Shown here: positions 41,166 through 53,363 of the stretch, piece after piece
How positions within the stretch are numbered: position 1 is the stretch's first letter
How the letters are laid out: each line of letters begins with the position of its first letter
Assembly (NCBI RefSeq): GCF_902713615.1
Contig: NC_052158.1
Location: forward strand, 39,361,729-39,425,728
From: Scyliorhinus canicula
Taxonomy: Eukaryota
DNA: 64,000 nucleotides
Reading direction: 5' to 3'
Made by a program: the position numbers and the translations under genes
Notes under the pieces: generated by a model
Told to the model about the DNA's origin: nothing
Seen by the model: the letters and a program-made list of their open reading frames with translations, nothing else
The model's database searches: none

Positions 41166-42748
41166 CAAGAACCTCATGATGTCACCGACAAGCAGCGTGG
41201 AAAATCATGAAAATGCAATCTCGCCGGGTGATAATCACGTTTCCTGATTCTCGCCATATTTTCCTCCCACGTCACCATTCTCGTTGATGGCTAATGTGGA
41301 CTTAAAATCGCCCCTTTGATCTCAGCCATTCTTCAACAATAGTACCTCAGGTTACAATCTTCTGTCTGAAACAGATCTTTAGGCCGGACCTTTTCAGCCG
41401 TTCTCAGCACCAAGATCTTTTCGTCCCGCTGATGGTCGGGGTGACAGTACAACAAGAAACCCCGTTGACAATGGCAGACCAGACGATCCCACCGCCAACC
41501 AATAGCAGGTGTCCTCGGCAATCACGAAACCTGCTATGGGACTTGTGGAAATCCCATCCTTCATTCCTAATTGGCAACTGTTCTCTGCTTCTATATTAAT
41601 TTCTGCCCAAGCCAGGTGAAGTGTTCCGGTTATGAAATGTGAATTTACAGAATGCAGCATTATTAACCAACCCAATCACTGTCTCAGAAGTCTGTTTGTA
41701 AGAACTCTAGGTATGCAATTAAACAAAGGCATCCACATATGTATTTGACATATTAAATAACATATTATTAAGACCACATATCCTCCTATTCTATCAGCCT
41801 GTTTATGTCTTTTTCTAAAAGTTTATTATTGTCTTCCTCTTAGTTCACTACACATCCAACTTTTGTGTCATCTTCTGATTTGAAATCGGGCCTTGTATGC
41901 CCTAAGTCCAAGGTCAAATACCAGCAGCGGTCCGAGTCTTCAAAACTTGGCAACATCATTGCCTTCAGTCTCAAAACCAGTCAATCACCACAACTCCCCA
42001 TTTCCTATATCTTAGTCAGTTCTGAAAACATCCTGCCTCTTCTCCATGAGCTCTCTTGGTAATCGTTCACTGAAGCATGGCCAACCGTGGGGATTTTATA
42101 AAACAATTCCTGTACCAGCTGAGGTAATTCATAAAGGCCCGCCTTCTCAACCTTACCCCTCGCCTGTGTCTCCCTCAGCTAGAATGGGGATCAAATCCTG
42201 TGCTGTTAGTGTTAGTCTTATTGACACACAAGCCATCTAAACAACTGAGCTAAGAGCAACAACACCCTGCACCCACCAATCCTCTCTACAAAACCGCTTT
42301 CAAATAACCACTACTGTCCATTTTAGTCCACAGGGTTTAATTTTACTAACAAGTCTATCAGTTGCATCATTATAAAAAGTATTATGAAAGTCCACGGAGA
42401 CAACTTCAATTATATTCCCCTCATCAACACAATCTTTGGTGTTTTATCAAGTAAGTTCAATCAAAGCAAACAAAAAATTCTCTTTAATCCAAGTTCACTC
42501 CCCACTTTTAAACTATTTTGTCCAATACCTATTAATTTTCTCCCTATATTTTGTCCCTAAATGTTTTCCTGCCATTATTATTGATCTGACTGGACTGTAA
42601 TTGGCTGGATTATCAGTCTCCACTTTATTTGATGAGGGTGTAACATTTGTCATCCTCCAATCCACTGGCACCATGCCAGGTATGACAATCCCATTCCCCA
42701 TTGTGATTTTCTGCTAACAACTGATTATTGATTTTTGGTCCCTGACAG

Positions 42749-43025
42749 GAATTCATGTTTTCCAATGGATCCTAATTGGTGAAGTCACTGAAGACGGCTC
42801 CATTCGGAGGTCGATGAGAGTTGGATTTGATGGGAAGGATTATATTAGTTTTGGAGCCAGACACAATGAGATGGGTCGCATCCAATCACATCGCAGTGAA
42901 GACCAAAGAGAAATGGGATTCAGATCAATCCTGGAACAAGTATTGGAAAATAGTTCTAGAAGAAAACATTATCAACGATTTGCTGGTGTATTTAAATGCT
43001 GGAAAGGAATATTTTGGACGGAAAG
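42749..43025 (+). pseudogene. Class I gene 2, alpha2 exon with +1 T (42849-42852), no cysteines
   Basis: 277 nt vs 276 in gene 1; GIHVFQWILIGEV..FDGKDYIS / LEPDTMRW..VLEENIINDLLVYLNAGK. Confidence 0.92.
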
Positions 43026-43136
43026 GTATTGATTTGAGTTTTGATCCATGTTCTGATCTAACTTCACTGATCTATCAACCGTTCTACATTCCATTCGTGT
43101 CTGTCTATTTTTGGTTTTCACCCTTTCCCATTACAG

Positions 43137-43414
43137 TTCAGCCTGAAGTCTTCATCTCCAGAAGTGAGGCCAATAGTCAGTACAAGCCTCACTTCTCTCC
43201 TGCCTGGTTACTGGGTTTTATCCTGTAGACATCGAGGGTGACCTGGCTAAGGAATGGAGAGGTAATGTCTGAGACACAATCCTCTGGGCTCGACCGAACC
43301 ACGATGGGAGCCATCAGATCCAGAAAGAGATTGAAATAAATGCTGGGGATGAGGATCAATACTCCTGTCAAATTGAACACAGCAGCCTGGCAGAGCCCAA
43401 GCTCCATCAGTGGG
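43137..43414 (+). pseudogene. Class I gene 2, alpha3 exon with three local indel lesions (net -1)
   Basis: 278 nt vs 279; otherwise nearly identical to 12587-12865. Confidence 0.92.
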
Positions 43415-44459
43415 GTAGGACACTTGACTGGGTATATATGTGTGTGGTACCAGGATGAGGCCATTCTGCCCTTTGACTCTGTTCCTCCATTCAGTTCACA
43501 TCCTGACTGATCTGTCCCACAGCTCCATTTATCCATTATTGGCTCAATATCTGTCGCTGTCTGATCCAATAAAACTCTCTCTATCTCAGTCTGGAACATG
43601 TCCATTAACCCCCAGCTCCCACAGCCTTTTGGTGGAGAGAGCTCCAGATTTCATTGCCCTTTTTGTGAGGAATTGCTTCCTGATATCACTCCTCAATGTC
43701 CTCAGTCTAATGTGAAGATGATGCTCTCTTATTCCAGATTCCACCACCAGAGAAAATAGTTTCTCAGTATCGACCCTATCGAATCCCTTTATCATTTTAA
43801 CATCTGGATCAGATCCTCCTTCACCCTGTTAAACACAGGGAAATACATGGTCAGCTTTATATAACCTGCCCTCAGAACTGAGAGAATCCAGCTCAATGAA
43901 AAGGCTTCACAAATGCCCAGAGATTAAGTTCCTGACCCTTTGGCCGAGATCTACCGGCTGCATTGCGTCTGAAATGCAGCGTGACGCAACCGGTAGATGC
44001 CGCGGGATATCATCCACGGGATCTACCCTCCACGCTTCAGGAGATCTAAAGCGATCTCGCGGAATGTCACGACCTGAATCCTGCCCATTGTGGGCGGGAT
44101 CACTTTCTAGCAAATCTACCTAATTAGCATGCGAGAGCTAGTCTCACTTTAATATGTGTTCCTGAAATCTAATCCCGTCACCTGGAGACCTCGGGCGAGT
44201 GTTCTTCAATGCTGCTCAATGCTCCGAGCACCAGGCAACACCGGCTAATTGTGCTCTACAGGACTCTGTCCCCATTGGGTAGATCGCACAAGAATTAGCA
44301 GATCTCATGGAGACGGAATGGCCTTTGTGAAGGGGAGCTCTTGTCTGACTCATCTCACTGGCGGATAAGGGAGTGTCTATGGGCTGGTCCAGCTGGAATT
44401 CCAGAAGGTCAGGAATCTTGGTACAAAGAGAAAATCCTGATCCTTTTCCAATGTTTCAG

Positions 44460-44579
44460 AAATACGGGAAAACAGTGTGCGACACCATCAACTTGTCATT
44501 ATGATGGTACCACTGATCCTGGCACTGGCTGGTATATTCGGGATAATTGGAATAATCATCAGGTGCATACATCGAAGAG
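44460..44579 (+). CDS. Class I gene 2, TM exon
   Basis: tttcag / G-gtaag; EIRENSVRHHQLVIMMVPLILALAGIFGIIGIIIRCIHRR. Confidence 0.88.
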
Positions 44580-49049: not shown

Positions 49050-52000
49050 AAATTTCCTTTACGGGACGTGTCATGAAGAACGTCCTCACGATATTTGGCA
49101 TAACACAAAAATTCCGCATAGCATACCACCCCCAGTCGAGTGGTATCGTGGAGCGCATGAATCGGACTCTAAAAGCTACCCTCAGAAAAATGGTCCAGGA
49201 GAATAACACGACTTGGGATTCAATCCTCCCATTCGCTCTAATGTTTTTGAGAAACACTGTTTCGACTTCTACAGGTTTCACCCCACACACACTCATGACC
49301 GGACACCCCATGAAAGGTACAGAATTCCTTTTAGGACTCGACTTGACCAGCCCCGAAGTGACGGCCCTCACCCACGAGACTGCAGTAAAACAATTGGTAG
49401 ACAATGTAAAATCAGCTCAGCAGCCGCGGTAAAATTAGGCACAAAAAGGAAACAGAGCAAGACCTGTTTCGAAAGGACAGTACATGCGATTGAGTTTCAG
49501 GTAGGACAACAGGTCATGCTGTCTGTCTACAGCCCCAGCACATTTCTGTCGCCAAAGTATTCGAGTCCGTATTCCATTGCGGACAAAGTTAGCCCCTCAG
49601 TATACAAGATCAAGTACCCCAACGAGAAGACGGCGTGGTTTCATATTAACTAGCTCAAGGCATATGGCTCGCAGTCTAACCACGCACACCACGTCATGCT
49701 TGACGCAGCACACCCCGCCCCACCCACAAGAGACGTATTTCCACCCTCCCCCTGCCAGACCAGCACCTCCATGGACTCGACCTCGACTCCGCCCCTTGAC
49801 TTTAGACTGCGCCCCGGAACGCCCACCAGCAGCAGAGACAGCGACTGTGACTCTGACGACAGCCACAGCACTCCTCACTACTGCCCTGCATAACAGACCC
49901 CACACACAGCGACTATGAACCTGACTCAAGTGATCCCTTTGAGATCACATACATTAAGGCCCCAGACCCAGAACCACCGCCCCACAATGAAGACCCTGAC
50001 TTTGAATACTCGGACTTAGACAAAACTGTTTGGCACCGCGACAATTCGTTCAGGCTCGCCCGGAATGACGAGATGGGCCCAAGGTCACACCATGCAGCCT
50101 TAGCAGCCATTATTCATTCGCGAGTATGGCATCTGGGAGAAGAGGATGACAATGAGTCTGACTCCCAAAACCAGAACCCCTTTGCGACCCTGTTCGCAGA
50201 TGACAATTGAGGTGTCCATCTGATGTAAAAAGAGGAACCGCTTGAGAGAGAAACGGAGTCCTTTCTGATGGAACCTGCACGTTTTGTGTTGCACGTTTGT
50301 TTGTTTGTGTTTGTATGTTTCTTTCCCAGGTACAACAGCTCGGCGGCCACACGCCCTATTTGTCCACCGATACCTCTGACAACTTGCCGGCTTGCTGGTC
50401 AGCTGATACCACTGAGAGCTTGCCCAACCCCCACTCACAACTGCTCTTCTGATTTGAGGGTACTCTTATCAGCAGATACCTCTGGGAATTTGCCACAGCC
50501 ACTTTCATAACTGCTCTTCTGGTTCGAAGGTAGAACCATTACAGCAACCCCCCACGATGACTACATTCCTGCCCATTCTTGTCAGGTCACTCAGGCAGTG
50601 GAGTAACAGCACTGATCCCCGCCGTGTCTGAGGACCCCCCCTCTGGTCAGCTAAGCTCGGGTACAGCACAGCACGCCCTACCCGGGGATCCTATCCAAAT
50701 CTTACCCGTCGCGGCCCATACGCACCTCATTTTGGCACTCTTGGTTTTAAAAGTTTGCTTTTGTTTTGTTTGTTTTCAGGTAACACTTTGGTTGCCACCT
50801 CCCCATGCTATTTACATCCAGGAACATTTGGATGGTAGATCGCAAAGCCTGAGAGATGGCTCGCAGTGGTACAGTATTTAAGACTATGTCTGGGCCTTAA
50901 ATTCGTTTTTGAAAAAAAAAGTGAGGGAGTCACAGAGAGTGACCAATTATAAAGGGAAACGTGGCACAAAAGGACAGACATGCTGCAGACAGACAGATAT
51001 TAAACAAGATGCTAACAGGCACGATGCTTGATCCCACAGATTTTCAGATGCTCCAAGGAGGGATCAAAGGAAGAAAACAGAAGAGAAGAGAAAAGAACAG
51101 AAGAGAAGAGAAAGATGAAGAAGACATCTTGTACCTTTGTCATATGGATCATAGGATCCATGTGGTTGCACGCGGACGCAAACCCCCTTACCCCCACTCC
51201 ACCAGCCGTTAATGTTTCACTTCCACTGAACACACAGAGCCAGTAACAAGTAGCAACACGCCGACCTGGTGTGACAAGTTCATCACCTGGTATTCCCTTT
51301 TTATTGTGGTGGAATCACTGTTAGCATTGGCAATAATCTGCAGCATCGTGCAGACTCTTCGTATGAAGAAATGGTGAAGGAGAGCCTACCGCTCCCTCAC
51401 CCCAGTTTACAGGATGAGATCCCCTATTTTCGGTTTCCACCAGGCCCCTGAACCCCTCGAAATGTAATAAAGAATTTTTTGTTTGTCGTTCATTTGTAAA
51501 TAAAGAAATGTGTTTTCTGAAAGATTGTATAACTCTGAGTTTGACTGCCAAGCCAGAGAAATGAAATCTGAATGCTGCTATTGTTTTGTAATGTTAGGAA
51601 GTTAGTATGCTTGGTTGTTTTGAGTGAGTGTAGTTATTGAGGACAGTTAGAGGTTCCAGTTTGTTATTTTGTACTGCATGTCCCCTTATGACATAACGCC
51701 ACTTAGAAACTGTTAGGTAAACTTTTCTTGCATAGTTGAGGACAGGGTAGAGGGCCATGGAACTCGCTGAGGTCAGGTAATGAAGACAACATAGTTGTGT
51801 GATCCTTCACGCTTCGTGTTAGGATCACAAGGAGGGGGTGTAGCCACCTGAGTTGGCCACTTCCCAAGTTAAAATGGAGAAACACAAGGAACGCAGGGAC
51901 AATTGGACAATCCCAGAGAAACAAACAGTTTGCAGACTTTTCCTGTGTATTCTGCCTGCAAAGAAAGCAGACAGCACCGAAACCAGCGGCCATGCATATT

Positions 52001-52255
52001 AATGAGCGATTCCCGGGCACAATAGTAACAATCAAAGGTGATCGAAGTAAAGCTAGACTCCTCGGCGCCAGCAGGAGTCCAAGACAAAAGAAGCAAACGG
52101 GCACCCAAAGACCGCCCAGCGATCGGGAAACAGTCCCAGTATTTGGGAATTCAAACCAATCGATTGGCATGGTTGTAAGCTCATACCAAGTAAGCTCGGG
52201 GTCCGCCCAAAAGAATGCAAAGCCTCTGGGACTATAAGATAGAGCCCCCAAGGTC
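49050..52255 (+). mobile_element. 3' part of a retrovirus-like/LTR element: integrase, accessory region, PPT, 3' LTR
   Basis: AYHPQSSGIVERMNRTLK integrase core, PKYSSPY GPY/F-like module; PPT AAGGAGGGGG 51829-51838 followed by TGTAGCC; TATAA-like at ~52232; right end interrupted by a MITE. Confidence 0.8.
51115..51467 (+). pseudogene. Small single-pass membrane glycoprotein ORF (~117 aa after repairing one -1 frameshift and one TGA)
   Basis: Signal-like MKKTSCTFVIWIIGSMWLHADA; P/T/S-rich ectodomain with NVS; TM LFIVVESLLALAIICSIVQTL; basic tail RMKKW*RRAY. Confidence 0.6.
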
Positions 52256-52732
52256 AGTTCGCGTGAGATGCCCGAGATGCCCGTTTTGGGGCTTGTAGGG
52301 GGCCTGGTGGGGAATGAGGACCACGGCCGTGCTCGGGAGGGGTCAGGCCCATGATTGATGCCCACCGATCGTCGGGCCGGTGTCTCAATCGGACGCAGTA
52401 TTTCCCCTCCGCCGCTCCACAAGGTCAAGCCGCCATGTCTTGCGGGGCGGCTGAGGAGAAAGACGGCCACCACGCATGCGCGGGTTTGAGCTGTCAGCCG
52501 TCGTGACGTCAGCCGCGCATGCGCCGGTTGGAGCCGGCCAACCTGAGCATGCGCGGCTGATGTCACATAGGCGCCGCCGTCGCGTCACTCTTGCCGCGCC
52601 GCCTGGCGGCCGAGAGTTACGGAGCGCTGTTCCTAGCCCCGCCGGGATGGGAAAATAGGGGGCGAGGAGCGGTCTCCGAAGCCGTCGTGAAACTCGGCCC
52701 ACGATTTTTCCCAGGAGCGGAGAATTCCGCCC
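52255..52732. mobile_element. MITE-like element, one end missing
   Basis: Ends GGAGAATTCCGCCC; internal homology with 52768-53363. Confidence 0.7.
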
Positions 52733-52767
52733 TCAGTCTCTGTGACCTACTTCCTCATCAAGACACT

Positions 52768-53363
52768 GGGCGCGATTCTCCCACCCACCCCCCAAAATGG
52801 CATTCGCGACCGGTTCACGCCGGCATCCACCACACCTGGTCGCTGCCGGCGTGAACATGGCGCCAGCAGCTGTTTTGGGGCTTGTGGGGGGGCGGAGAGG
52901 CGAGTGAGCACCACGGCCGTGCTCGGGAGGGGACTGGTCCGCGATCGGTGCCCACCGATCGTCGGGCCGGCGCCTCAAAGGGACGCACTCTTTCCCCTCC
53001 GCCGCCCCGCAAGATCAAGCCGCCACATCTTGCGGGGCAGCGGAGGGGAAGCCGGCAACCGCGCACGCGCGGGTTTGAGATTACAGCTGCCGTGACGTCA
53101 GCTGCACATGCGCGGGTTGGAGCCGGCCAACCTGCGCATGCGCGGCTGACGTAATTTGGCACGCCGGCCGCGTCATTCAGTGCGCTGGGCATTGACGCCA
53201 GCGATAAGGCCCCGCAGCCGAGATTCACGGCACGGACCTCCTATCCCCCGGGGTGGGGGGGGGGGGGGGGGGGGGGAGATAAGGGACAAGGAGCGGCCTC
53301 CGACACTGTCGTGAACCTCTCCGGATTTCACAACGGCATCAGGCCTTGCGGAGAATTCTGCCC
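52768..53363. mobile_element. MITE with imperfect 14-bp TIRs and 3-bp TSD (ACT), PIF/Harbinger-like
   Basis: GGGCGCGATTCTCC ... GGAGAATTCTGCCC; ACT on both sides; empty site in the paralogous sequence at ~31645-31655. Confidence 0.82.

Follow-up and report, generated by a model that had tools for sequence, protein, structure and literature searches.

A small membrane-protein gene in the env position of an env-less endogenous retrovirus family of the catshark Scyliorhinus canicula

Loss of env is the textbook route by which a retrovirus becomes an intracellular retrotransposon. Some env-less elements nevertheless encode a small membrane protein. Thus, sORF2, found in the Drosophila MDG1 group and in other insect LTR elements, is an ORF of ~70-110 residues with a single transmembrane segment (TM), a juxtamembrane basic cluster and a short ectodomain, which is under purifying selection and lies downstream of pol in some moth elements (PMC11952523). 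As the screen that defined sORF2 covered arthropod Metaviridae and required myristoylation (Gly2) (PMC11952523), the shark protein described here would have been missed by it. Small single-pass proteins are also known from the reovirus FAST family (p10, p14, p15). For example, p14 has a 36-residue ectodomain and a basic cluster (PMC3952855), and FAST proteins have no signal peptide and no glycosylation but are myristoylated or palmitoylated (PMC3952855, PMC12945298). In CrocERV31, a basal endogenous retrovirus (ERV), a captured nectin3 gene under purifying selection has replaced env, and its host source is clear (~76% identical) (PMC4299795). The snakehead retrovirus (SnRV) and Ovex1 have a long env or an env-like ORF3, and SnRV-like ERVs are carried by the elephant shark (PMC4422223).

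No description of the gene reported here was found in the literature, while Repbase and Dfam, which lay outside this search, may hold the family. The accessible text of works on the full env genes of catsharks (10.64898/2026.05.06.723177) and of anamniotes (10.1101/2021.11.23.469661) concerns full envs. The literature covered also includes PMC12193657, PMC12440569, PMC11089739, PMC9040795, PMC4977317 and 10.1101/2024.03.17.585361.

The locus lies in a stretch of 64,000 nucleotides of the S. canicula genome (contig NC_052158.1), hereafter the window, whose positions are used throughout. Its features are as follows.

49058..50210, + strand: 3' pol remnant with integrase core, GPY/F-like SH3 part and long C-terminal tail (weak Pfam matches to rve_3 and SH3_Tf2-1)
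50300..50329, + strand: pyrimidine-rich tract ending in AG, just past pol (from sequence; site of the env acceptor in a related env-bearing family)
50580..50945, + strand: conserved non-coding block with predicted RNA hairpins (cross-copy alignment)
51010..51039, + strand: branch point (TGCTAAC) and splice acceptor (AG at 51038-51039) (conservation; RefSeq models)
51040..51114, + strand: purine-rich leader from the acceptor to the ATG (76% purine)
51115..51467, + strand: small membrane-protein gene, broken here (reading frames, comparison with other copies)
~51115-51180, + strand: predicted signal peptide (hydropathy and a low-confidence model)
between ~51180 and ~51267, + strand: S/T/P-rich stalk with N-glycan sequon (from sequence)
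~51267-51296, + strand: aromatic membrane-proximal segment (from sequence)
~51297-51359, + strand: predicted TM (hydropathy and a low-confidence model)
~51360-51386, + strand: basic cluster, followed by the tail to 51464
51799..51838, + strand: conserved hairpin and polypurine tract (PPT, 51829-51838) (cross-subfamily alignment)
51839..52262, + strand: 5' part of the 3' LTR (TGTAGCC...), matching both LTRs of full-length copies

The element of the window is truncated 5' of 49058 and is colinear from there with full-length copies, its 3' LTR being split at 52262 by an unrelated GC-rich repeat. The original prediction assembled the small gene from two frames, with a missing base near 51236 and a stop at 51375, and both lesions are present in this copy. 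Frame 1 starts at the ATG 51115 and runs for 43 codons to a stop at 51244-51246, frame 2 (51213-51377) encodes the membrane-proximal part and the TM and ends with the stop 51375-51377, and a tail piece (51378-51464) then leads to the TAA at 51465-51467. From this three-piece structure, the window copy differs from an open gene by one frameshift (near 51236-51243) and one in-frame stop (51375-51377). Some 360-370 bases separate its final stop from the PPT, in agreement with the distance of ~370 bp first given. The window copy is a dead fossil of a real gene. The splitting repeat, which has inverted arms, occupies 52262-53150, and similar repeats split several other loci. The window also holds MHC class I-like exons (alpha2, alpha3, TM) at 42718-44560 on the + strand; they are oriented like the element, which lies ~4.5 kb downstream of them.

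Intact copies, which the original prediction called for, exist elsewhere in the genome. At least 46 DNA matches to 51000-51860 were obtained, mostly 79-94% identical (40 of 2,657 candidates scored), and the frame is unbroken over 111-118 codons from the same ATG in 11 of 30 DNA-matched loci (window included, one locus unmapped). Among protein-search candidates, 109 of the 150 scored (out of 5,646, a set biased toward open frames) had no internal stop by hand count. An RT search with a distant relative led to a young subfamily, from which 20 loci were fetched by RT score; most of them have an open 582-residue Gag and a long pol, and the two LTRs are 98.6-100% identical in the 18 loci where both are visible. 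The small ORF is open with the same ends in 16 of the 19 young loci that have the region in view, with a local-alignment identity of ~57%. In older copies the two LTRs are 88-95% identical, and further subfamilies exist, whole-protein identity being 42-61% among four natural copies from different subfamilies. The five other frames of 52 distinct open copies are stop-free in only 1 of 260 cases; together with the openness of the ORF in many loci with the same ends, this places it beyond chance. The family is an LTR family of multi-thousand-candidate size that was recently active and is still amplifying, as its LTR pairs and open gag and pol indicate. Some young copies lie two in tandem at a distance of ~8.9 kb, a spacing that would fit an LTR common to both (C3:20733970/20742837, C16:82321158/82330097, C1:102289163/102298040).

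The dN/dS values (NG86) were obtained from these 52 naturally open copies, sorted into four pattern-defined groups, broken copies being excluded. They are well under 1, as expected from the original prediction: 0.23-0.35 for six between-subfamily pairs, which are non-independent, with a codon-bootstrap upper bound of at most 0.54, and 0.22-0.49 within groups. Synonymous sites are near saturation between subfamilies. Gag and pol have lower values (0.07-0.10, one pair). Conservation is highest in the aromatic membrane-proximal segment and the TM (pN 0.06-0.27 versus pS 0.48-0.69), which form, with the tail, a conserved core, while the signal peptide and the stalk evolve fastest, the signal peptide varying in sequence and keeping its hydrophobicity. 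Relative to one natural yardstick copy, the single shared indel within the ORF is in frame, compared with 0 of 23 in flanking non-coding DNA and 1 of 5 in the leader. Private indels number 25 in the ORF versus 23 in an equal stretch of the 3' UTR, and the open fraction (11/30) compares with 8-10/29 expected under neutral decay. Purifying selection across subfamilies joined to neutral decay after insertion indicates that selection acted during replication of the element: the small ORF is under purifying selection at that stage, and copies decay neutrally once inserted. The indel and open-fraction pattern of the copies gives no sign of host domestication.

The protein features first predicted from the window recur across the four groups of open copies, i.e., a signal peptide, an S/T/P stalk with sequon, one TM and a basic cluster. 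A hydrophobic N-terminus is present in all groups (best 10-mer mean hydropathy 2.2-3.4), the stalk contains 44-57% S+T+P, and an N-glycan sequon is found in 50 of 52 copies. The TM starts at residue 57-60 (19-mer hydropathy 2.1-2.4) and includes a conserved Glu; the 15 residues after it hold 6-7 basic and ~0 acidic ones, and a tail of 38-42 residues follows. Conserved motifs are the amphipathic WCxKFxTWYS segment, RKWxRR and, in the tail, an invariant SPIFGFHQ. A YNTL end is restricted to 15 of 19 young copies. Both the signal peptide and the topology are predicted from hydropathy and from a low-confidence AlphaFold model (pLDDT 62), which has a helix at 3-22, disorder at 23-51 and a helix at 52-94.

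Selection, copies and protein searches thus support a real small single-pass membrane-protein gene with no named homologue, as had been proposed. A profile search of 1.84 billion representative proteins gave five matches, all of them element-containing RefSeq models of S. canicula or S. torazame. A word-index protein search with the small protein gave no candidate and an ESM Atlas search with a stored homologue no usable match. The Foldseek comparison suggested at the outset did not help: none of 27 matches to viral models had an E under 0.001. Pfam matches are all sub-threshold, with TMEM156 in 7 of 9 aligned copies (best E 0.006; the match spans the aromatic segment, the TM and the basic cluster) and adenovirus E3A and K1 at E 0.2-0.4.

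Full copies of the element are ~9.6-9.8 kb long with LTRs of 890-950 bp. Gag, which starts with MAMQ and thus has no Gly2, comprises a coiled coil and one CCHC knuckle, and an in-frame stop precedes the protease; the structure model of its N-terminus is poor (pLDDT 55), below use for fold comparison. Pol is ordered as RT, tether, second RNase H and integrase, with Pfam RT_RNaseH and RNase_H in one frame, the RTs of foamy virus and MLV as best solved relatives, and an SH3/GPY-like end. In the window, the integrase tail is a low-complexity acidic/proline stretch of ~190 residues (49650-50210), whose end HSRVW...NPF.TLF is conserved in all subfamilies. The target duplication is 4 bp in 8 of 11 copies. 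The primer site corresponds to the 3' end of a genomic tRNA-Arg(TCT) gene in one of six loci checked. Young copies (L113-L132) differ at this site beyond TGGCGAC, as though several variants of tRNA-Arg served as primers.

The dual RNase H, the in-frame gag stop with readthrough, the single zinc knuckle and the unmyristoylated coiled-coil Gag are shared with SnRV, Ovex1 and SnRV-like ERVs (Gag and readthrough traits in PMC2717909). By eye, the RT motifs are like those of SnRV and unlike those of Loki-Lch/Str in the alignments of Wang and Han (PMC7947760). In an RT tree of 41 rows, the element falls in an open fork with frog and coelacanth rows and Ovex1-like bird rows, the Ovex1 label resting on the WMGPVRV motif (PMC2717909), apart from class I and Loki-like rows, while one row with SnRV-like motifs falls across an open fork from it. 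The element is a basal Retroviridae ERV of the SnRV/Ovex1 grade, its placement within the grade being left as an open fork. It is not a lokiretrovirus, given its distinct RT motifs and the separate clade of Loki-like rows. An ERV4 identity, defined by a 5-bp target duplication and by the lack of zinc finger and GPF/Y (Chong et al. 2014, PMC4299795), is ruled out by the 4-bp duplication, the CCHC knuckle and the SH3/GPY-like end.

Unlike SnRV and Ovex1, the shark family has no env. Both the pol end and the PPT could be located in 38 of the 53 long loci examined, which leaves 15 outside the measurement. None of these 38 has an env between pol and the 3' LTR: the two landmarks are 1.4-2.2 kb apart (median 1.6), and no open frame between them exceeds 186 codons. 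The small gene therefore sits in the env slot, as its original description stated. It is not itself a retroviral Env, with 111-118 residues and no SU-TM precursor, furin site, fusion peptide or heptad repeats. Neither the small protein nor the element has an Env Pfam match, and the small gene does not match the TLV_coat env genes of the catshark genome, which belong to another lineage. A 116-codon upstream frame seen in some young copies was not accepted as a gene, as shared frameshifts break it elsewhere.

A related, older family of low copy number in the same genome has a pol 35-53% identical to that of the element, followed by a full env that ends with TPxWW..W, a TM and a basic cluster; the RT tree does not place it as the sister group of the element. 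Its loci are L146, L188-L194 and L207-L214 (e.g., C15:79774058, C12:58978251). By eye, its env resembles the paramyxovirus-F-like env of lokiretroviruses (RQRR site, FNTGTSIVNS stretch), with no Pfam match. Lokiretroviruses were not found by Wang and Han in the six cartilaginous-fish genomes that they covered (PMC7947760).

The small gene is preceded by signals of the env type. A branch point (TRCTAAC or ATTGAC) and an acceptor lie 43-116 bases 5' of the ATG, the acceptor triplet being YAG in 39 of 43 distinct copies. In two other copies, the RefSeq predicted models P0024 and P0025 have a GT-AG intron that runs from the GT donor of the preceding exon to precisely this acceptor. Two further predicted models, P0026 and P0028, have a common entry point ~22 codons 5' of the start. 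Of 43 copies measured, 39 have a leader free of upstream ATG, the window copy having one at 51048, and a purine occupies -3 of the start codon in all 52 open copies. As 11 of 14 loci checked have a GTAAGT donor in the LTR, splicing may proceed from it to the acceptor at 51039. Among the matches listed for contigs of 6 of 14 runs (presumed RNA) against one old and one young copy, no LTR-to-acceptor joint was seen. The tract at 50300..50329 is a putative acceptor in a region that varies between subfamilies. A U-rich tract with AG at 50779 is a doubtful acceptor because its triplet varies (CAG/TAG/GAG/AAG) and the bases downstream form a covarying hairpin.

The block 50580-50945 is more conserved than synonymous sites and includes several hairpins, one with a UUCG-type loop. 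Its folding predicts 71 pairs, five with two-sided change (nine sequences), and its shared indels are all out of frame. Rfam gave one chance-level match over the 3' region, with no IRES family, and none for this block, which could be an element of RNA export, packaging or translation.

What the small protein does can be approached through its known counterparts. With FAST proteins and sORF2, it shares a single TM, a juxtamembrane polybasic cluster and a short ectodomain; the likeness to FAST extends to size, to a mature ectodomain of ~35 residues and to 3-8 basic residues after the TM. As FAST proteins have neither signal peptides nor glycans, the predicted signal peptide and the sequon in 50/52 copies, along with Gly2 in 0/52, rule out membership of that family. 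Unlike sORF2, the shark gene belongs to a vertebrate Retroviridae element, occupies a spliced-env position, has a predicted signal peptide and N-glycan but no Gly2, and shows no sequence match to it. The reading that we rank first, plausible but short of probable, is that the protein serves as an Env substitute that helps Gag particles to reach and cross into neighbouring (germ) cells. It is preferred since the gene is kept for the benefit of the element, in the env position, with env-type expression signals, and by analogy with sORF2. The env-less ERV would express it from a spliced LTR-driven mRNA, and predicted cleavage of the signal peptide near residue 20-22 would leave a ~35-residue ectodomain made up of the N-glycan, the S/T/P stalk and WCxKFxTWYS. 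The single TM would be followed by a basic cluster for stop-transfer/Golgi export and by a tail of ~38-42 residues with SPIFGFHQ, which would gather unmyristoylated Gag at the membrane, while the aromatic segment would favour contact or fusion of nearby membranes, the role put forward for sORF2 in Drosophila. Against this, env-less ERVs are known to multiply successfully with no membrane protein at all (cited in 10.1101/2021.11.23.469661), so that spread alone needs no fusogen, the dN/dS of the small gene exceeds that of gag and pol, and sORF2 gave no cell fusion in standard culture assays (PMC11952523). Moreover, the glycosylated S/T/P stalk fits immune-modulating accessory proteins equally.

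A signal peptide, a glycosylated stalk, a TM with a Glu and a tail motif are typical of immune-evasion accessory proteins. All are predicted or conserved here, and a Vpu/E3-like role, in which the protein would remove MHC, tetherin-like or receptor proteins with no particle transfer, also accords with the several small accessory ORFs of SnRV-grade viruses (PMC12193657) and with the E3A and K1 matches. We nevertheless consider it unlikely, as these matches are non-significant and a germ-line retrotransposon presumably gains less than a free virus from immune evasion. Furthermore, the YRSL tail motif that the original prediction read as YxxPhi is confined to the window copy, YxxPhi occurring in the last 38 residues of 0 of 20 copies of its subfamily. 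Slightly less likely still is an assembly anchor only, whose tail would recruit the unmyristoylated coiled-coil Gag to an internal membrane for maturation in the same cell, with no cell-to-cell step. The lack of Gly2 in Gag and the invariant cytoplasmic SPIFGFHQ would suit such an anchor, and foamy virus budding does require Env, but conservation of the luminal aromatic segment and of the sequon is on a par with that of the tail, which goes beyond the needs of an anchor. As to origin, the gene might tentatively be seen as a shrunken env, reduced to signal peptide, membrane-proximal region, TM and tail, or as a captured host membrane gene; it may also have arisen anew. The env end of the related family recalls the former, whereas profile comparison with that C-terminus gave a probability of 0.6% (E 0.096) and HMM matches to that env have E 0.5 or worse. 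Capture has a precedent in the nectin3 of CrocERV31 (PMC4299795) and draws on the TMEM156 matches; however, these score ~14-17 bits when single proteins are searched and no more than 22.9 bits across the genome, far below the 27-bit cut-off, and all six genomic matches are element copies. With no host parent exon found, TMEM156 capture was rejected, and no host gene is among the five matches in the 1.84 billion proteins. The shark gene thus differs from CrocERV31 in having no host source found, and its family is far larger and young. That the ORF is a neutral relic or a chance frame without function is scarcely credible: the broken window copy, the private indels and the open fraction agree with it, but dN/dS well below 1 with synonymous sites near saturation, and the conservation of topology, acceptor and start context, speak against it.

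The family has lost env and yet keeps a membrane protein under selection in its place, together with splicing signals of the env type, a retention that spans subfamilies down to 42% protein identity as well as very recent insertions. If the protein does act in cell-to-cell transfer, envelope-independent germ-line infection would extend to vertebrate retroviruses. It is conceivable, if doubtful, that a Retroviridae lineage dropped Env, gained a mini-fusogen with a signal peptide and moves from soma to the shark germ line, still spreading, which would make it the first Retroviridae counterpart of sORF2. In any case, the small gene is a retroviral gene that annotation has missed in a shark used as a laboratory model, and it is directly testable.

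The acceptor of the element also draws host transcripts in, as judged from predicted models. P0024-P0028 are RefSeq predicted models from two catsharks in which host exons are spliced into it, providing new ends for annotated isoform models: a HEPACAM2-like one gains the TM and basic cluster of the element, and a PTGER3 one gains a new end.
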